Assembly: GCA_030593145.1 (NCBI GenBank)
Contig: JAUVHU010000006.1
Coordinates: 1,121-65,120 of the forward strand
Direction of reading: 5' to 3'
Source: Desulfobacteraceae bacterium
GTDB lineage: Bacteria; Desulfobacterota; Desulfobacteria; Desulfobacterales; ETH-SRB1
Length of the DNA: 64,000 bases
This document shows positions 4,865 to 35,446 of this stretch, piece after piece (position 1 is the first letter of the stretch; every line of letters starts with the position of its first letter). Both the position numbers and the translations under genes were made by a program. Under the pieces are notes generated by a model. That model was not told where the DNA came from. It searched no databases and saw only the letters and a program-made list of their open reading frames with translations.

Positions 4865-6646
4865 TTGAAAGCAACCGAACCTCAATATCAGCAGGCGTTG
4901 CCTGAAGAATTTTCCGTCACCACACTTGAAAAAAATTTAGCTGCTTTGGCTACCATCAATGAGAATTTATTTCAGCGTATATGCCTGCCGGTTGATGGTA
5001 CCCATGTCCATTTTCTCAAAAACGGCGAAATTAGCTATCAAATAAACCAAACCCTTTTTCCATTTGTCTTGGACAAAGAAAAGCTGGAAGAGACATTGAA
5101 AGATGTAAATAGTTCGAAAGATATCCTGCTTTTCGGTATTGGACTGGGCGAGCAGCTTAATTATTTGCTCGAACGGTTCACGGAGGTCGGAATCACAGCC
5201 TGGGATCGGGACCCCTGGCTTATTCGCCTGGCGCTGATGCAGAGAGACTACAGTCACCATCTTCGTTCCGGCCGGCTGCAACTGCGTATGGGCGTTGATA
5301 TTTTGGATATCGTTGATATGGCTAAAAACACCCCTGTCGTGATTCATCCCTTGTTACGTTCGTTTTACAAAAATGAGTGGAAATTACTTAAAACCGGCGT
5401 TGGAGAAAAGCGAGCCATTATATGTTCGGGCGGGCTTTTTGTGGACGATGTAAGTAATGCTCTGGAAGGGTTTGGTTATACACTTTACACATTAGACGTA
5501 ACAAGGTTATCTGTTGAAGAAATATCGCTAAATATCAAACGATTCAATCCTCAGGTGGCTTTTGCCGTTAATTATACAAACGGTCTTGCAGAATTGTTCG
5601 AAAGTCACGGCGTAGATCTGATTTGCTGGGAGGTAGATCCTGCCACAGACCACCTTAAGCCGATCAGTACAAGCTCGGATCGTGCCTATGTCTTTACTTA
5701 CCGAGAAGCTAATGTTGAGGAATTTGTCAAGGCCGGGTTTAAGAATGTAGAACATCTTCCCCTTGCTTCTGATACTGAAAAAAGATTGCCGACACAACTT
5801 TCCCAAGAGGAACACGACATCTATGACGCCAAATTGTCTTTTGTTGGTTCGAGCATGACAGAAAATGCGATATCCCTCCGTAAAATCTTTCTTTCACAAT
5901 ACAAGGCTTGTCAGGATGGATCTGCTGATGCGGTGGAAGAGGGAAATCGTCTTTTAGAAGAGATTTTATCCGTGCAGCGGCAAAATTTCTCTGTTTATGT
6001 AATCCCTGATCTTTTAGATAAATATTTTTCCGGCTTCATCAGCTACCTTTTGAAGCTTCCCGGCGCCCATAATCCATTCATCCTGGTTGGTGAAATTGCG
6101 GCAGCGGAAAAGCGGGCTAACTACATTGCAAATCTGGGCAGCCTCGGTGTAAAGGTCTGGGGTGATGATGGGTGGCTGAGTACAGAGCAATTTGGAGTAA
6201 AGTATATGGGGAGCGCCGGACACACATTTGAGATCAACAAGATTTACAGTGCATCCAGCATCAACGTGGATATCAACAGGTTATATCAGATGGATATTAT
6301 ACCGATGCGGATTTTTGATATCATGGCCTGCGGCGGTTTTATTCTGGCCGAATACAGCAAAGAGTTAAGTAACATCTTTGAGATAGGCAAGGAGGTTGAA
6401 ACATACAGCACGTTAGACGAATTGGTCTCAAAAGCGACCTACTATCTTGATCATGAATCCGAAGCATTGGAAATCGCAAAGCGGGGCAGGGGAGCAGTAC
6501 TTAAAAAGCACACGATATCCGGTAGGGTGAAGCATATGCTAAAGGCCTGCGTTAAAGAATGTTCACCGTTTTCCGACGTGCAACCGACAACCGACAACGA
6601 ACAACGGTCAACGGATAACGGCCAACGGCTAACCGATAACGGATAA
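4865..6646 (+). CDS. Maf-N-terminal-like module fused to CgeB/DUF3880-type glycosyltransferase domain
   Basis: The N-terminus parallels the Maf protein at 23761 (LEKNLAAL..INENL vs LEQNLNVL..KDPDL; LLFGIGLGEQLNYLL vs IFMGLGLGYHLDLFF). The C-terminal INVDINR..MRIFDIMACGGFILAEYS..TLDELVSKATYYL is CgeB-like. The last ~20 codons (QPTTDNEQRSTDNGQRLTDNG) are read from a heptamer array. Confidence 0.55.
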   Translation: MKATEPQYQQALPEEFSVTTLEKNLAALATINENLFQRICLPVDGTHVHFLKNGEISYQINQTLFPFVLDKEKLEETLKDVNSSKDILLFGIGLGEQLNYLLERFTEVGITAWDRDPWLIRLALMQRDYSHHLRSGRLQLRMGVDILDIVDMAKNTPVVIHPLLRSFYKNEWKLLKTGVGEKRAIICSGGLFVDDVSNALEGFGYTLYTLDVTRLSVEEISLNIKRFNPQVAFAVNYTNGLAELFESHGVDLICWEVDPATDHLKPISTSSDRAYVFTYREANVEEFVKAGFKNVEHLPLASDTEKRLPTQLSQEEHDIYDAKLSFVGSSMTENAISLRKIFLSQYKACQDGSADAVEEGNRLLEEILSVQRQNFSVYVIPDLLDKYFSGFISYLLKLPGAHNPFILVGEIAAAEKRANYIANLGSLGVKVWGDDGWLSTEQFGVKYMGSAGHTFEINKIYSASSINVDINRLYQMDIIPMRIFDIMACGGFILAEYSKELSNIFEIGKEVETYSTLDELVSKATYYLDHESEALEIAKRGRGAVLKKHTISGRVKHMLKACVKECSPFSDVQPTTDNEQRSTDNGQRLTDNG

Positions 6647-6686
6647 CGGATAACGGACAACAATGATTAACGGACAACAGATAACA
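6580..6686. repeat. 7-nt-period degenerate array, unit CGGAYAA
   Basis: ccgacaa ccgacaa cgaacaa cggtcaa cggataa cggccaa cggctaa ccgataa cggataa cggataa cggacaa. It spans the stop codon at 6644-6646. Confidence 0.85.
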
Positions 6687-7760
6687 ATGCCCAATGACCC
6701 AAAAGTAAGCGTTATTGTTCCAACATATAATAGGGCAGATATGATAGGATTCTGTATTGAGGCAGTCCTGTCTCAAACTATGCAGGATTTTGAACTCATC
6801 ATTGTTAGCGATGGCTCTACTGATGAAACGGAAATAGTAGTCAAAAATTATCATGATCCCCGAATATTATTTTTTGAAAAAGAAAATGGAGGACAGGCTT
6901 CAGCGCGTAATTTGGGCATAATCAAATCAATAGGAGAATATATATCCCTGTGTGACGATGATGATATATTTTATCCGGATCACCTAAAAACATTATGCGA
7001 TTTATTGGATACTCATAGAGATGTAGGATTGGGATATTCAGACGCAATATGGATATACAAGGATGCTTCAATAAAGCCTGAGGTAAGATTTTCGGAAGAT
7101 TTTGACAAAAAAAATCTGGAGAACTTCAACTATATCACAACGCAAACCGTCCTGTTCAGGAGATCATGTCTGAAAAATACCGAGCTATTTAATGAAGACC
7201 CATGTCTTAGGAATGGCTTGGAAGATTGGGAATTCTTTTTACGGTTTTCCGACAATTATGCTTTTTCTCATATAAAGAAGGTTTCATCTGAATACAATAT
7301 ACATGAAGGGAACTCATTTCACTCCGATTCAGGTTATGATTACAACAAAGCCTTCTTTCATGTTAGGACACAGAGATTTCAATATCTCACGGCAAAATTT
7401 GGCCATTTTATTTTTGATCATGTTGATCACATGTATCCATATCATTTGGTTCAATGTTATCTGAATAATGGAAAAATCAATGAGGGCCTTGAAATAGCTC
7501 AAAAACTTCAGCAGATTTATATGACATATAGCAAGAATAACAACAAAGCGCCATTTGCGGAGTTAGTGATCCTTTTTTCTCTCGGTATAAGCAATTTTGC
7601 CGCAGGTTATGAAACAAAAGCCAATAACTTCTTCAGAATTATCATTGACCACCCCTCCTACACATTAATTAAAGACCAATTTGACGAGTTTGCCAACCAG
7701 TATGTAAACAGAATACCTAATGCGGGACTTAAAGCCCTATTGAGGAAATATTTCCTGTGA
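6687..7760 (+). CDS. glycosyltransferase family 2
   Basis: The longest ORF starts at 6663 inside a repeat array. ATG 6687 gives MPNDPKVSVIVPTYNRADMI..LIIVSDGSTDET, a canonical GT-A/GT2 N-terminus, followed by an acidic CDDDD motif. Confidence 0.75.
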   Translation: MPNDPKVSVIVPTYNRADMIGFCIEAVLSQTMQDFELIIVSDGSTDETEIVVKNYHDPRILFFEKENGGQASARNLGIIKSIGEYISLCDDDDIFYPDHLKTLCDLLDTHRDVGLGYSDAIWIYKDASIKPEVRFSEDFDKKNLENFNYITTQTVLFRRSCLKNTELFNEDPCLRNGLEDWEFFLRFSDNYAFSHIKKVSSEYNIHEGNSFHSDSGYDYNKAFFHVRTQRFQYLTAKFGHFIFDHVDHMYPYHLVQCYLNNGKINEGLEIAQKLQQIYMTYSKNNNKAPFAELVILFSLGISNFAAGYETKANNFFRIIIDHPSYTLIKDQFDEFANQYVNRIPNAGLKALLRKYFL

Positions 7761-30122: not shown

Positions 30123-30200
30123 CAGGTGTTAAGTGTTAGGCGTTAGGTGTTAAGAGCTTGATAAAACAGATAATTACTTTAACCTGACACCTGATCCCTT
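30123..30200. repeat. 7-nt-period array with downstream inverted arm
   Basis: aggtgtt aagtgtt aggcgtt aggtgtt aagagct, then the complementary ttaacctgacacctga ~20 nt downstream. Confidence 0.7.
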
Positions 30201-30316
30201 ATCACGGCTCGGGTCGAGGACAAGCTTCGCAGGAATGACATACGGGGCGGGAACGAATTATATTATAATTTTTGGTGTCTTTGTGTCTTAGTGGCTGAAC
30301 TATTACCAAATAACCT

Positions 30317-30391: not shown

Positions 30392-33300
30392 ATGTCCATC
30401 AGCACAAACCTGATATCCGGCCTTTCAAGTGGTTTTGACTGGCGGAGCATGATCGACCAGTTGATTGCAATAGACCGCGGCAGGGTCGATCTGATCGAGG
30501 GCAGGAAATCTGAATACGAGTCACAGCTTGCTGAATGGCAAAATGTCAACACCATGCTGCTTTCGCTTAAAACAGCTTCAGGAGCTTTGAGCACGGAGAG
30601 CGCCTTTAATGTTTTTAGTTCCAGCACTACATCCAACACAACTACGGCGGTCTCTAGCCTGCTTACCATTTCAACCAGCTCCACGGCCTCTCCTGCACTG
30701 TATAACATCAAGGTAAACAATCTTGCGCAATCTGAAAAGATATCTTCCACGAACTATGCGGCTACAGACACAGCGCTTGGTTTGATCGGCGATATCCTTG
30801 TGTCGGGGAAAGTGGTAAACATCGTATCGACCGACACACTCGCAGATATCAAGGACAAAATTAACGCAGTGAATACGGGTTCGGACCCTTCCAATGTGAC
30901 AGCAAGTATTGTTTCACACTCTTCCACCAATTATCATCTGATCTTAACAAGCGACGAGACAGGCGAAGACGGACTCAATATCTTTGAGGGGGCCTATGAT
31001 AGTGGCGACAACATTCTTGAGGAGATGGGCTTTATCAGCGGTTCCACCACCATCAAGAATACGACCAGCGACGGCGCCAAGAGTGATCTTTTTGACAGTT
31101 CCAGCGGGGCAATCAAGACACTATTAGGATTGACCAGTGCGCCTGGGGCCACGATAGTCAAGATAGGTGGATTAGATGTCAGTATAGACCTTTCGAGCGC
31201 CGCCGAATCGCTCACCACGATCGCACAAAAGATAGATGTCCTTGCGGGCATATCGGCCGAAGTTGTATCTGAAACCGTAAGCGGGGAGACAAAATATCGG
31301 ATAGACATCAGCGGAACCACCTCCTTTGCGGAGAGTGTCGGCGGCAACGGCAACGTCCTCCAGACACTGGGTATTCTTGAGGGGACATACGGGACAGTCG
31401 CGGAGGTACATTCAGGAAGCGTGAATTATGCTTCGGGTGGAGCAGCTGTCGTTGCCGGAACCACTTTTGCAAATGTCTTTACCGGTATACTCCGCGGAGA
31501 TATAGAAAATACGGAGGACATCTCCTCAGACCCTATATCATCTTCAACAACATGGGATGATATTGCTGGTTTCACTTGGGATGTTACTGATGAAATTACG
31601 ATCACAGGGACAGACCACGACGGTGCTCCCGTCAGCGAGACGTATGACCTGGCAGCGAGGGAGACTGAGGCACTTAGCGTTTTCTTAGGCCAATTGGAAA
31701 CATGGTTTGGCGGTTCGGATAAAGTTGATGCATATTTTGACTCTGATGGAAGGCTTATTGTTGAAGATTTACAGTCCGGAAGCAGCCAGATGTCGATTGA
31801 AGTAGATCCGAACGATGTCGGTCTGGACTTCAATACGCCTGATGTCGCCTTCGGCAACAATATTACAGAAGACACCGACACCATCAGCATTACGGGAACA
31901 AGAGGAGACGGAACAAGGATTGGCGACGAGGGAAATAACTATACCCTCACATATACGATTGCTGCCGGTGATGACCTTGCAGACCTTCTGACTAAGATCA
32001 ATAACGCTAGTGATGGCTTTGGCACTGGGCAGACCGCAACGGCCAGCATTTCCGGTGGAAAAATTATAATCACCGACGGCACCGCCGGAAACAGCCAGCT
32101 TTCACTTACTCTTGTTGCTAACAATGAGGGTGGAGGCTCTCTTAATTTCGGCGAGATCTCCATGCTCACCGAGGGTCGCAGCATGCAGGTTGCTGCTGGT
32201 GAGGACGCGGAGATTGTGGTGGACAACGTGACCATAACGAATTCTTCCAACACTATCGAAGACGTTATCGCGGGCGCGACCCTGAATCTTGTGGGAGAAG
32301 ACTCGGACACTACCGTTACTCTCAAGGTAGAGCGGGACCTTGCCTCCATAAAGTCAAAGATCGAGGACATGGTCAGCGCCTATAACTCCATAATGGATTA
32401 TATCAATATCCAGTTTACCTACGACGAGGACACGGAACAGGTAGGCGGTATCCTCTTCGGGGACGGCACACTTTCGACCATCAAGTCAGAACTTATCAAT
32501 ACGGTTACGAGAACAATTACCGGGGCATCCAGCGACTATAACAAGCTGGCCCTTATCGGGATTGCCTTAGACGTGGTGGACACCGACGAAGGAGAATATA
32601 ACAAGCTCAACCTGGTTATCGATGATGATGGCGCTGATGATAATGATCTCATGGATTATCTGAAAACGAATTTCGATGATGTTAAAAAGCTCTTTATTGC
32701 TTCCGGATCTTCTCCTTACTCAAATCTAACATATATAGGACATACGGATGATACCGAGGGAGGAGCATATAATGTCACAATTTCGCAGGCAGCCACGCGG
32801 GGTACAACAACAGGGAGTAATGCCCTTGTTGGGACAATTGCAGTTGCCGAAAAGGTGACCCTCACAGACTTTGACACGGGCAGGGTTGCAATCGTGGATC
32901 TCACAATTGGTATGGACATCAACGATGTGGTCAACGCCATCAATTCGGAGTTTGCCCAGGAATACACGGAGCAACTCACGGGGGCTACTGAAAACGCCGG
33001 TGTCACCTCCTCGACTTTGCTTAACGATGCATTAGTGGGCGGTGAAGATAACGATGTCATCACGTTTTCAGGGATAAAACGAAATGGCATCAGCGTCTCC
33101 GGGAGTTACACAATCAGTGATGCAACCACGGAAACCGTAGGAGACCTCCTGGAGGCCATCGAGGATATGTACGAAGACGGGGTCACGGTTGCCCTGGATG
33201 GTGACGGTAAGATCGTGATTACAAACACGCAGGTAGGGGACAGCAGTCTTTCCTTCAATATAGACACTTCGGCCCTTACCAACCTGGATTTTGGAACGGT

Positions 33301-33895
33301 CAGCACCACGACCGAAGGCCGTTACGCCATGGCCATTACGGCGTCCGAAGGGACGGGTGGTGACGATAATAAGCTTGTCCTGACCCACAACACTTATGGA
33401 ACCGGGCAGCAGGTTGCTACGAAGTCCGAGGATGGGAATGACGACCTGGGATTAAACACTGCCACAAAGGTCTGGGGCGAAAATGTTGCCGGAACTATAA
33501 ACAGCTTGACGGCTACCGGCAGTGGTCAAAACCTGTCGCTGGACAGTGACGGAAACAACGCAGACGGATTGTCTATAAGTTATACCGGCACAAGCACCAT
33601 AGCCGAAACAACCTTTACGCTTACCCTTGGGATGGGGGAGTTGCTGGATCGCAGGCTTGGCTTTATTACCAATACCTCTGACGGATATGTTACATACAAG
33701 AAAACGTCCCTTGGAAACAGCATTGACAGCTTTGAGGATCAGATTGAAAGCATGGAGGCAAGCCTGAACCGCAAAATGGAGACAATGATCAATAAGTTTG
33801 TGGCCATGGAAATGGCTTTGGCCGATATTCAGAACGAGAGTCAATGGCTTATGGCGCAGATCAGCGGTTCATTTTCCGGCTGGGGAAGCTTGTAA
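30392..33895 (+). CDS. fliD: flagellar filament capping protein FliD (hook-associated protein 2), unusually long (1167 aa)
   Basis: N-terminal ISGLSSGFDWRSMIDQLIAIDRGRVDLIEGRKSEYESQLAEWQ and C-terminal SIDSFEDQIESMEASLNRKMETMINKFVAMEMALADIQNESQWL are FliD N/C coiled-coil domains. Confidence 0.85.
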   Translation: MSISTNLISGLSSGFDWRSMIDQLIAIDRGRVDLIEGRKSEYESQLAEWQNVNTMLLSLKTASGALSTESAFNVFSSSTTSNTTTAVSSLLTISTSSTASPALYNIKVNNLAQSEKISSTNYAATDTALGLIGDILVSGKVVNIVSTDTLADIKDKINAVNTGSDPSNVTASIVSHSSTNYHLILTSDETGEDGLNIFEGAYDSGDNILEEMGFISGSTTIKNTTSDGAKSDLFDSSSGAIKTLLGLTSAPGATIVKIGGLDVSIDLSSAAESLTTIAQKIDVLAGISAEVVSETVSGETKYRIDISGTTSFAESVGGNGNVLQTLGILEGTYGTVAEVHSGSVNYASGGAAVVAGTTFANVFTGILRGDIENTEDISSDPISSSTTWDDIAGFTWDVTDEITITGTDHDGAPVSETYDLAARETEALSVFLGQLETWFGGSDKVDAYFDSDGRLIVEDLQSGSSQMSIEVDPNDVGLDFNTPDVAFGNNITEDTDTISITGTRGDGTRIGDEGNNYTLTYTIAAGDDLADLLTKINNASDGFGTGQTATASISGGKIIITDGTAGNSQLSLTLVANNEGGGSLNFGEISMLTEGRSMQVAAGEDAEIVVDNVTITNSSNTIEDVIAGATLNLVGEDSDTTVTLKVERDLASIKSKIEDMVSAYNSIMDYINIQFTYDEDTEQVGGILFGDGTLSTIKSELINTVTRTITGASSDYNKLALIGIALDVVDTDEGEYNKLNLVIDDDGADDNDLMDYLKTNFDDVKKLFIASGSSPYSNLTYIGHTDDTEGGAYNVTISQAATRGTTTGSNALVGTIAVAEKVTLTDFDTGRVAIVDLTIGMDINDVVNAINSEFAQEYTEQLTGATENAGVTSSTLLNDALVGGEDNDVITFSGIKRNGISVSGSYTISDATTETVGDLLEAIEDMYEDGVTVALDGDGKIVITNTQVGDSSLSFNIDTSALTNLDFGTVSTTTEGRYAMAITASEGTGGDDNKLVLTHNTYGTGQQVATKSEDGNDDLGLNTATKVWGENVAGTINSLTATGSGQNLSLDSDGNNADGLSISYTGTSTIAETTFTLTLGMGELLDRRLGFITNTSDGYVTYKKTSLGNSIDSFEDQIESMEASLNRKMETMINKFVAMEMALADIQNESQWLMAQISGSFSGWGSL

Positions 33896-33995
33896 GTAGA
33901 GCATAGAGCAGAAGGGCAGAAGATTAGAGGGTCAGAAGGTGAGAAGGTGAGAAGGTGAGAGGGTGAGAGAGGTTAGAAGGTGAGAGAAGGAGAAT
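33893..33995. repeat. 7-nt-period array starting on the fliD stop codon (left arm of the four-helix-bundle cassette)
   Basis: taagtagagcatagagcagaagggcagaagattagagg gtcagaa ggtgaga aggtgag aaggtga gagggtg agagagg ttagaag gtgagag. Confidence 0.8.
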
Positions 33996-33997
33996 GT

Positions 33998-34381
33998 TTG
34001 GAGAGAAAAAAGAGCATACGTCATTTTCGGGATCTTGAAGTTTACAGGCGGGCTTTTGATGCGGCAATGCAGATATTTGAAGTTACGAAAAAGTTTCCTC
34101 CGGAAGAAAGGTTCTCCATGGTAGATCAAATTCGAAGGTCGTCGCGTTCTGTATGTGCCAACTTGTCGGAAGGATGGCGGAAAAGGCGTTATTTGGCTGT
34201 CTTCAAAAATAAAATTACAGATTCAATGCAGGAAGCGTCCGAGACACAGTGCTGGTTGGAATTCTGTCTTGCCTGTCGCTACATCAAGCAAGATGTTTTC
34301 GATAAACTTGATAATGAATATGAGCAATTGATTGCAATGTTAAATTCCATGGAAATGAACGCTGCAAAATTCTGTTACTAA
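33998..34381 (+). CDS. four-helix-bundle protein (23S rRNA intervening-sequence protein family)
   Basis: IRHFRDLEVYRRAFDAAMQIFEVTKKFPPEERFSMVDQIRRSSRSVCANLSEGW is the family signature. The likely start is TTG 33998 after the gaaggag RBS. The longest ORF starts at 33980. Confidence 0.8.
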   Translation: MERKKSIRHFRDLEVYRRAFDAAMQIFEVTKKFPPEERFSMVDQIRRSSRSVCANLSEGWRKRRYLAVFKNKITDSMQEASETQCWLEFCLACRYIKQDVFDKLDNEYEQLIAMLNSMEMNAAKFCY

Positions 34382-34473
34382 CCTTCTAACCTTCTGATTT
34401 TCTAACTTTCTGCTTTTGAGCCATGCTTAATTCCATGAAGGTCGGAGGATTAGAAGATTAGAGGATTAAAGGA
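34379..34473. repeat. 7-nt-period arrays after the four-helix-bundle gene (right arm, inverted, plus a GGATTAG array)
   Basis: taaccttctaaccttctgattttctaactttctgcttttgagc is the reverse complement of the GGTTAGAAGG flavour. It is followed by ggtcgga ggattag aagatta gaggatt aaaggaa. Confidence 0.8.
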
Positions 34474-34535
34474 ATATTTACGACTCGATTAGTTGTGAGC
34501 GAAGTGAACTAAATTAACAAGGAGGATATGCTCTT

Positions 34536-34964
34536 ATGTATGGAAATGGAATTGATGCCTACAAACAGACAAACGTGATAACGGCAGACCCTAAAAGACT
34601 AATATTGATGTGTTATGAGGGAGCGATAAGCAGCCTGAAGACGGTAAGAGAAAAGTATATTTCCAAAGAATATGAAGCAAAAGCGGGGGCTCTTCAAAAG
34701 GCGCAGAGCATTATAGGCGAATTAGCGCAGGCGCTTGATTTCGAAAAGGGTGGAGAAATAGCCGGGAATCTGAATTCCCTGTATAATTATATGCTGCGTC
34801 GCATAACTGAGGGAGATGTAAAAGGGGACGTGAAAGCCTTTGATGAGGTAATTCTGATGCTCGAAGAACTTGAATCAGCATGGAAGGAAATCGGCGCAAA
34901 ACCCTGCGTTGCAAAAAGTGTTGATGTAGAAGGCGCTGTTATGCAGAGTGCCGTAACCATTTAA
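34536..34964 (+). CDS. fliS: flagellar export chaperone FliS
   Basis: AYKQTNVITADPKRLILMCYEGAISSLK and ..IIGELAQALDFEKGGEIAGNLNSLYNYMLRRI. Confidence 0.85.
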   Translation: MYGNGIDAYKQTNVITADPKRLILMCYEGAISSLKTVREKYISKEYEAKAGALQKAQSIIGELAQALDFEKGGEIAGNLNSLYNYMLRRITEGDVKGDVKAFDEVILMLEELESAWKEIGAKPCVAKSVDVEGAVMQSAVTI

Positions 34965-34999: not shown

Positions 35000-35446
35000 A
35001 TGGAAAAAGAGAATTCATCGGATCTCCGCGGCCTCCTGGAACAGAAGTTAAATACCTTCAAAGACTTTCTTTCTACAACCGTGTTGTTAAAGGAAGCTGC
35101 TGTTTCTGAGGATGTGGAGGATATCAAGTCGCTTATAGAAAAGCGCCGGAGTTATATAAAGGCAATAGACCGGATTGACCGCGGAATAAAGAAGATAAGT
35201 GAGGCCCGCATAACATCACCGTCGGCAGAGACAAGAAAAGGGATCGAAGTACTCTCAATGGCCATCAGAAATACCGCGGAAAATGCGGCGCGCCTGAACA
35301 AAGAATTTGAAACCATACTGGAATCCAGGCATGGAGACCTGAGAAAGCGTATATCGGAGATGAGCCGCAACCAAGCTGGCATTAAAGGATATGCGGGTGG
35401 AAGACAAAGAAAGGAGCAGCCCAGGTTCCTGGATATTAGATTATAA
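35000..35446 (+). CDS. hypothetical helical protein of the filament operon (FlgN/FliT-like role possible)
   Basis: The call rests on position after fliS and on charged, helix-rich composition. No diagnostic motif was recognised. Confidence 0.4.
   Translation: MEKENSSDLRGLLEQKLNTFKDFLSTTVLLKEAAVSEDVEDIKSLIEKRRSYIKAIDRIDRGIKKISEARITSPSAETRKGIEVLSMAIRNTAENAARLNKEFETILESRHGDLRKRISEMSRNQAGIKGYAGGRQRKEQPRFLDIRL

Follow-up and report, generated by a model that had tools for sequence, protein, structure and literature searches.

For 30 years PF05635 has been an orphan protein family, known from intervening sequences (IVS) of 23S rRNA, from stray copies in operons and from Avd proteins. Here we analyze a member of this four-helix-bundle family whose gene is located between the flagellar genes fliD and fliS in a 64,000-nt stretch of DNA, called the window (contig C64:1121-65120 of G000, a 2.48-Mb, 41% GC, 94%-complete metagenome-assembled genome). 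Coordinates without a contig name are window positions. In the IVS of Coxiella burnetii, the S23p gene lies within a 28-bp stem that is cut by RNase III, and an AG-rich Shine-Dalgarno region with tandem GACAGAT heptamers directly precedes the start codon (PMC4990558). The window locus shares several properties with the 23S rRNA IVS of the Leptospira, Coxiella and Xanthomonas type (Ralph & McClelland 1993; Warrier et al. 2016, PMC4990558), including a PF05635/S23p cargo gene, an open reading frame (ORF) looped by complementary termini, sense orientation in the host transcript, long-suspected mobility and reductive decay of the ORF. Its G/A-rich array before the start likewise resembles the Shine-Dalgarno region and tandem heptamers of Coxiella. 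Unlike these IVS, it lies between fliD and fliS and not in helix 25 or helix 45 of 23S rRNA, its arms are long, variable and of period 8 instead of a fixed 28-bp stem, and excision by RNase III is predicted only. Moreover, the ribosome-binding site here is inside the loop, so that cleavage would not remove it, unlike in the rRNA IVS. The first-pass annotation had drawn attention to this IVS-like geometry in an mRNA operon, and complementary termini do enclose the ORF between fliD and fliS. The element is an IVS-like cassette outside rRNA, of a widespread type whose relatives have arms in >15 phyla; that 33917/33934-34443 is a promoter-less, hairpin-armed gene cassette of 23S rRNA IVS design in a flagellar mRNA operon is a reading to which we assign a probability of about 0.6.

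Pieces of this architecture have been described in other settings. In Geobacter metallireducens, Aklujkar et al. (2009, PMC2700814) took paired tandem octa-, nona- and heptanucleotide sites of classes 1-3 for 'global regulator binding sites'. These are also short tandem arrays on opposite strands, with variable spacing, between operon genes (e.g. proBA) of a related deltaproteobacterial lineage, but the paper names no enclosed gene family, whereas here the arrays are arms of a cassette or relics. Genes for 23S_rRNA_IVP occur inside cas operons (Zhang & Ye 2013, PMC3936711), and the family has been listed as linked to CRISPR (PMC10910872). There, too, the family is wedged between unrelated operon genes, such as cmr3-cmr2, and the RxxxSxxxNxxE motif is shared; by contrast, the papers suggest cas-associated functions and do not describe flanking inverted arrays or mobility. 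The CRISPR/cas association of PF05635 may be an artefact, because the arrays on either side could pass for CRISPR repeats and operons of every kind are open to the cassettes.

RNase III binds and cleaves the Correia elements present in Neisseria mRNAs (PMC2649163). Like the element here, Correia elements, miniature inverted-repeat transposable elements (MITEs) and REP doublets forming hairpins (REPINs) are small, intergenic and bounded by inverted repeats; those elements are co-transcribed with the neighbouring genes, have an RNA stem cut by RNase III and are mobilised in trans. Correia elements are non-coding, with fixed terminal repeats and a TA target duplication, whereas the element here has a conserved ORF, tandem-array arms and no defined target duplication. 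Compared to an integron cassette, the ORF here is promoter-less and in sense orientation, but has arms on both sides and not a single 3' attC. The short tandemly repeated repetitive (STRR) heptamers of cyanobacteria and the TAACTGA repeats of Beggiatoaceae have been described without mention of this gene family (PMC4679880). They resemble the arrays here in being abundant 7-nt tandem arrays between genes that favour one orientation to the downstream gene, but the descriptions treat them as direct repeats that may have regulatory roles and do not connect them with a gene cassette.

In the literature searched, we found these pieces but not their synthesis as a movable cassette type. Ordinary operons of many phyla thus hold a general type of movable gene cassette, of which the rRNA IVS is probably one special form; for this type the locus supplies a recently moved copy, filled and empty sites at base level, a second cargo family, a hot spot of exchange and a decay series. 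It also connects a long-standing puzzle, the abundant intergenic arrays of heptamers and octamers in cyanobacteria, Geobacter and sulfur bacteria, with a concrete element. Should RNase III cut the stem, such cassettes would be a natural route for inserting genes into operons with little polar damage.

Evidence for movement came from an order-wide search, which found homologues of the cargo protein in 174 of 401 genomes. The best match, in G023, shows 97% protein and 96.6% DNA identity; fliS is 83% identical in DNA between the same two genomes. The G023 copy is on a contig other than that of fliS, between unrelated genes, and shares with the window copy the right arm (95% identical) and the tail, while its left array belongs to the same unit family and is much longer. 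The sequences flanking the G023 copy align with G000:C94 (80-83% identity), where the site is empty (G000:C94, AGCAGAGGTT^GGATGTC; G023, AGCAGAGGTT[agagggtgag...catgaaggtc]GGATGTC). A 96.6%-identical copy at another locus of another species, matched by an empty site in G000, is direct evidence of movement and supports the proposal of the first-pass annotation that the gene and its arms are a mobile or processable cassette.

The ends of the element could be placed by the same comparison. Homology between the window and G023 stops sharply at 34443/34446, and deletion of 33934-34443 rejoins an uninterrupted period-8 host array from 33896-33933 and 34444-34480 (tagagcat agagcaga agggcaga agattaga gggtcgga ggattaga agattaga ggattaaa), with a lag-8 identity of 0.58 compared to 0.22-0.37 at other lags. 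The return of the array in register upon removal implies that the element is a discrete insertion of ~510 bp into a pre-existing host array, and these comparisons indicate that the cassette entered this period-8 array just past the fliD stop codon (TAA, 33893-33895). The left boundary can be placed only to within two units (33917-33934), since the arrays of host and element share homology and the copy in G025 starts 'gggcagaagg'. At the right end, the tail 'gccatgcttaattccatgaag' (34420-34440) reads AMLNSMK, compared to AMLNSME inside the ORF, and on this translation is a relic of the 3' end of another four-helix-bundle gene. The element ends in GGTC (34440-34443), which repeats GGTC at 33930-33933; the host bases just before the element are GGTC in the window and GGTT at the G023 site, both resembling the last bases of the element.

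Comparison of the fliD-fliS spacer among relatives points to the same history. FliS homologues were found in nine genomes of the family besides G000, eight of which keep fliD beside fliS, and a four-helix-bundle gene was present in the spacer in none of these eight. The gene is therefore not conserved at this position. Plain spacers occur in G019 (112 nt; FliS 76% identical) and G025 (47 nt), and the spacers of G020, G018, G006, G012, G007 and G004 hold arrays of various units without a gene. The G020 spacer opens directly after the fliD stop codon with (GGATTAGA)n, the unit of the third array of the window. An ORF-less hairpin in the same spacer repeats the loop motif of a lepA-leuC cassette of G022 (ggagcgaagcgac.tcatta), which implies that the fliD-fliS junction hosted cassettes earlier. 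These comparisons indicate that the present insertion is recent and occurred after this species split from its relatives.

Three arrays were called at the locus with Tandem Repeats Finder, and all have period 8 and not the heptamer period of the first-pass annotation: (AGAAGGTG)n at 33910-33985 (9.4 copies), (CTAACCTT)n from 34378 to 34417, and a third array, (GAGGATTA)n from 34445 to 34473, which is purine-rich and had not been separated before. The left and right arrays are reverse-complementary, as earlier reported, both by their units and in predicted folds. In the minimum-free-energy and centroid structures of 33880-34480 alike, 33899-33952 pairs with 34379-34428, which would give a long-range stem of ~50 bp around the ORF with a mean pair probability of 0.87 and 12 G-U pairs in sense, in line with the earlier suggestion that a transcript could enclose the ORF in a long stem. 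Bases of the left arm pair with the right arm at a probability of 0.78, compared to only 0.045 for pairing of the right arm with the third array. The isolated stem is predicted at -58 kcal/mol in sense and -48 kcal/mol in antisense, and the arm duplex is more stable than dinucleotide shuffles (z = -4.6).

Arms were also found around homologues in other genomes and phyla. Homologues 74-87% identical in amino acids in G002 and G008 lie between aminotransferase and acetyltransferase genes with AGAAGG/CTTCT-type arms, and arms of this type are kept in Sedimentisphaerales and Phycisphaerae (Planctomycetota), where the homologues are 73-74% identical. More distant relatives have other units, each with its complement in the downstream flank: GACGAAGG in Omnitrophota, GACACGGG in Acidobacteriota and Pirellulales, GGGGAGAT in cyanobacteria, and GAGTATGGG in Chloroflexota and Armatimonadota; the cyanobacterial PF05635 genes sampled carry inverted GGGGAGA-type arms. 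Flank complementarity was scored by local alignment, which replaced RNAduplex on flanks of 130-200 nt because all left arms are purine-rich, so that RNAduplex energies were inflated and contrasted poorly with cross-locus pairs. Cognate complementarity exceeded the 95th percentile of cross-locus pairings at 16 of 31 loci in the order and at 47 of 75 loci from >15 phyla in a wide sample, which consists of the best 80 matches to one subfamily and is not an unbiased sample of PF05635. Judged from these flanks, the arms belong to the element, and travel and diverge with the gene.

A census of G000 gave a consistent picture. Of 11 PF05635 matches, five are intact, and at each of the five a G-rich tandem array precedes the gene and the reverse complement of that array follows it, with a different unit at each locus (GAGGTCA, AGAAGGTG, AAGGTTC, GGGATTA and GATTGTT), which for the intact copies answers the earlier question whether genes of this family always have inverted flanks. 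Fragments on C80 and C99 have CACAAAGG-type arms on both sides, and only the upstream arm is visible at a fragment on C55, which is cut by the contig end. Arrays of period 7 (479) and period 8 (248) are far more numerous in this genome than those of any other period. When 619 arrays were tested, an inverted partner was located ≤1.5 kb downstream for 120. The pairs include ~93 ORF-less hairpins with a gap of <150 nt and a separate group of seven with gaps of 384-491 nt, which enclose a PF05635 gene in five cases, a GxxExxY gene (TIGR04256, 143.6 bits) in one and no clear ORF in the last. Because six of these seven pairs enclose PF05635 or GxxExxY genes, the hairpin-armed architecture is specific to two small gene families and is not a by-product of common arrays. 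The two intact GxxExxY genes lie within inverted octamer arrays, CACGAAGA/CTTCGTG at C6:3448 and CGCAAAGG/CCTTAGCG at the other; a third GxxExxY gene carries a stop codon. The GxxExxY genes gave weak Cas4-like hits in PADLOC.

Decaying copies were recovered when the element DNA was searched against genomes of the family. In the G025 copy (L165, G025:C1:780908-781180), 150 nt of the ORF are deleted exactly between two CAATGCAG direct repeats, which shows how ORF-less hairpins can form by slippage, and G001 holds another internally deleted copy. Mini copies without the ORF share an identical deletion junction (tttgtttttgagttctttac) and occupy two different flagellar junctions, one preceding flgB (G022) and the other separating flgH from flgI (G025). 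One junction at two loci implies that ORF-less derivatives spread and that mobility is supplied in trans. No mini ORF-less form of the window cassette was found elsewhere in G000.

A second junction, lepA-leuC (G000:C19:16500-17070; loci L135-L155), is a hot spot of cassette exchange. It is empty in G014 (13-nt spacer) and G015 (22 nt), and in G000 it holds another PF05635 cassette that is also present in G016 and G018. In these three genomes, the lepA stop codon and the cassette ATG both fall within array units (GGGATTAG ... GGGATTATG). G022 has a different PF05635 cassette at this junction, with GAACATC arms, of which G023 keeps an ORF-less relic and G020 a solo arm, and G025 has a GxxExxY cassette, with relics in G024 and G019. 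Comparison of such orthologous sites indicates that cassettes decay into ORF-less hairpins and solo arms. This finding supports, in part, the earlier suggestion that orphan arrays are empty sites or solo arms; most arrays are not explained in this way, since ~730 period-7/8 arrays stand against ~11 family genes and the array at the window locus existed before the insertion, which implies that most are not simply cassette footprints. The particular example that had been offered, an inverted pair without an ORF at 30123-30200, is a weak hairpin (-21.9 kcal/mol, z = -2.2) in which no inverted repeat ≥14 nt was found.

The orientation of the cassettes is strongly biased. Across 106 cassettes, 92 share the direction of their upstream neighbour and 86 that of their downstream neighbour; both neighbours are sense in 78 and both antisense in 6, where insertion at random orientation would give equal numbers. 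A shared polarity was also seen in the 64 ORF-less array hairpins located between co-directional genes in G000: 45 have their purine-rich arm 5' on the sense strand (p = 0.0016), and stability favours the sense fold in 39 compared to 25 (p = 0.03).

These properties suggest a mechanism by which host operons could tolerate the element. No sigma-70 promoter or intrinsic terminator was predicted in 33700-34700, and Rfam gave no match, and no rRNA, at the cassette locus. A cassette lacking its own promoter and terminator would be transcribed in sense together with fliD, and its arms would form a double-stranded stem of ~50 bp in the transcript that loops out the ORF. RNase III, whose gene (rnc) is present at C77:5126, would probably cut this stem, by analogy to the Coxiella IVS and, as a second case, to the Correia elements of Neisseria. 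The cut would free the cassette RNA with little harm to the messages of fliD and fliS, which would let the element ride host operons. Movement would need a factor acting in trans, because ORF-less derivatives also spread.

Several results weigh against this interpretation. Co-transcription, the stem and RNase III cleavage are predictions only, and no recombinase or transposase was identified. The whole 601-nt fold is not significantly more stable than shuffles (z = -1.48), and the pairing register is not fixed, since 33896-33933, which makes the outer half of the left stem strand in the minimum-free-energy fold, is host array and not cassette. Co-orientation is also common for ordinary operon genes, and about one third of the relatives sampled have no significant arms. 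A test of G-U versus A-C mismatches was inconsistent between samples, with a sense excess in the order-level sample (77 to 44; p = 0.003) and none in the wide sample, which tended in the opposite direction (77 to 101). Finally, the GGTC and GGTT before the two insertions analyzed may reflect either a brief duplication or a preference for a core or target; a target preference is possible because the G023 copy has the same ending as the window element.

An alternative that we regard as possible but unlikely is that the arms act mainly in DNA, as terminal inverted repeats or as single-strand hairpins or cruciforms for a trans-acting transposase or recombinase, comparable to MITEs, REPINs or integron attC, with the RNA stem as a by-product. 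The mini elements with an identical deletion at two loci in two species do imply mobilisation in trans, but a candidate enzyme was not found. The sharp stop of homology at the right end and the GGTY motif before the element in both insertions would suit such an enzyme, as would the replacement of lepA-leuC cassettes at one fixed site, which resembles site-specific exchange; by contrast, the arms are variable tandem arrays that change in copy number, compared to the usual fixed termini of transposases. The strand evidence is divided as well. The wide sample lacks an overall sense-strand G-U excess, whereas the order-level sample has one, the sense RNA stem of the window element contains 12 G-U pairs and exceeds the antisense stem in stability by 10 kcal/mol, and the biases toward host transcription (78 versus 6 cassettes) and in hairpin polarity (45 of 64) speak against arms that work mainly in DNA. 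Action in DNA may hold for mobility while the RNA-stem model holds for host tolerance. A broader proposal, which we consider rather doubtful, is that the cassettes and the hundreds of orphan 7-8-nt arrays are one system, in which trans-mobilised hairpin cassettes with PF05635 or GxxExxY cargo home into tandem arrays in register and a pentamer of the four-helix-bundle protein recognises the repeats. Homing would occur by unit-length homology or a short core (GGTY here), and cycles of insertion, exchange and decay would seed and lengthen arrays. If this were true, STRR, the Geobacter 'global regulator sites', the Beggiatoa heptamers and the 23S rRNA IVS would be one element type across many bacterial phyla.

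Two further explanations appear very improbable. One holds that generic slippage-prone intergenic repeats, like cyanobacterial STRR, happen to lie on both sides of the gene and that there is no cassette. Period-7 and period-8 arrays are indeed abundant in the genome (479 and 248), the fliD-fliS spacers of relatives hold arrays without the gene, and a few ordinary genes (hslV and a nitroreductase gene) are likewise within inverted arrays; however, chance does not account for the enclosure of a PF05635 or GxxExxY gene by six of the seven inverted pairs at 384-491 nt, for arms that accompany the gene at different loci and in different phyla, or for cognate complementarity above cross-locus controls (16 of 31 and 47 of 75 loci), which effectively refute this explanation. 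The other, to which we give equally little credence, takes the gene for a host flagellar component or regulator, or for the Avd of a diversity-generating retroelement. The gene is sense-oriented within a flagellar operon, and FliS and FliT are also small helical-bundle chaperones, but its absence from the junction in all eight relatives argues against a flagellar role, and its closest homologues lie between sugar-biosynthesis genes and in other unrelated contexts. PF05635 does include Avd proteins of diversity-generating retroelements (PMC10053308). Against this identity, no match to PF00078 was found anywhere in the 94%-complete G000, and PADLOC gave no hit for the four-helix-bundle protein. 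Without a reverse transcriptase in the genome, the protein is not an Avd partner of a diversity-generating retroelement here, and retro-mobility by a host reverse transcriptase is likewise ruled out for G000. A role as a defence system was not supported, given the lack of a PADLOC match.

The protein itself is a clear member of its family. It matches PF05635 at 108.8 bits (cut-off 33.8; E 2e-31) over profile positions 1-106 of 106 and TIGR02436 ('four helix bundle protein') at 97.7 bits (cut-off 24), which agrees with gene order in placing a four-helix-bundle gene between fliD and fliS, as first annotated; the signature FRDLEVYRRAF..DQIRRSSRSVCANLSEGW was confirmed in the ORF. Both starts behind the reported length of 127-133 aa can be read, GTG 33980 (133 aa) and TTG 33998 (127 aa), of which TTG 33998 is the likely start because it is five bases after GAAGGAG (33986-33992). 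The ribosome-binding context 'aaggagaa(c/t)gtTTGgagagaaaaaag' is common to the window, G023 and G025 copies. The right arm overlaps the stop codon of the ORF (34379-34381). The GxxRxxxSxxxNxxE motif has been described as a hallmark of the family (Lin et al. 2006; Zhang & Ye 2013, PMC3936711); R47, S51, N55 and E58 are present in 'DQIRRSSRSVCANLSEG', and the first position is Q44 instead of G, a residue that is invariant in this subfamily. Compared to the G023 copy, there are 10 synonymous and 3 non-synonymous codon changes, which implies that the cargo gene is under purifying selection. By sequence similarity only, the nearest solved structures are 2rld (E 2.7e-10) and 2gsc (E 1.9e-7), whose depositions contain five chains each. 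Because the protein is akin to Avd, we would guess that it binds nucleic acid, perhaps the arm repeats. The coordinates of the locus are collected in Table 1.

Table 1. Features of the cassette locus and of related loci in G000.
Feature	Coordinates	Strand	Remarks
fliD (flagellar cap protein), upstream host gene	30392-33895	+	1167 aa; PF07195 E 5.5e-32, PF02465 E 6.7e-19
Host period-8 array, left part	33896-33933	+	tagagcat agagcaga agggcaga agattaga gggtc
Cassette's own left arm, G/A-rich (AGAAGGTG)n	33934-33985	+	homologous to left array of G023 copy, copy number differing
Ribosome-binding site GAAGGAG and probable TTG start	33986-33992; 33998-34000	+	read from sequence
PF05635/TIGR02436 four-helix-bundle gene (cargo), intact	33998-34381	+	127 aa
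Right arm, C/T-rich (CTAACCTT)n	34378-34417	+	Tandem Repeats Finder; complementary to left arrays
Cassette tail	34418-34443	+	end set by stop of G023 homology and by filled/empty comparison
Host array, right part, (GGATTAGA)n	34444-34473	+	Tandem Repeats Finder 34445-34473; same direction as left array; not stem partner
Conserved fliS leader with fliS ribosome-binding site	34474-34535	+	unaffected by insertion
fliS, downstream host gene	34536-34964	+	PF02561 E 1.6e-37
flgN-like gene, after fliS	35000-35446		
GxxExxY genes (TIGR04256, PF13366, PD-(D/E)XK fold)	G000:C6:3448-3798, C5:1991-2341, C32:23059-23397 (minus strand)		
Conserved element of ~70-100 nt 5' of PF05635 fragments	G000:C67:38560-38664, C99:7640-7745, C81:8140-8243		

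The fliS leader 'atttacgactcgat..gttgtgagcgaagtgaactaaattaacaaggaggat' is conserved 5' of fliS in G019 and G023, and in G023 it is kept although no fliD precedes fliS there. This retention points to a promoter or RNA element belonging to fliS itself, in which case an insertion upstream would be harmless.

Other observations concern neighbouring or related sequences. 'ggtgtctttgtgtcttagtggctgaactatta' (30266-30300), located just 5' of fliD, matches the right arm plus tail that follows the C99 PF05635 fragment with CACAAAGG-type arms and is probably a solo right-arm relic. The conserved element on C67, C99 and C81 (attgagcaggtgtgatcccagagggtacacctgcc.cgacgggcgcgagcacggcgggaggggtcaagg...; Table 1) lies directly 5' of three truncated PF05635 fragments of a different subfamily. 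Rfam gave no match for this leader, and its assignment as the end of a group II intron was dropped. FliD of the window has 1167 aa, compared to ~479 aa for the complete G007 frame; the FliD stretches of G006, G012 and G004 (450-471 aa) are cut by the locus edge, and the extra length is a large central region rich in Ser, Thr, Gly and Asp. Elsewhere in the window, a (CAACGGA)n heptamer array at 6581-6689 is translated as the C-terminal tail of ORF 4865-6646 (...PTTDNEQRSTDNGQRLTDNG) and runs on into the start of the next gene, a glycosyltransferase gene from 6663, so that by its reading frame repeat DNA is read as protein at this site.

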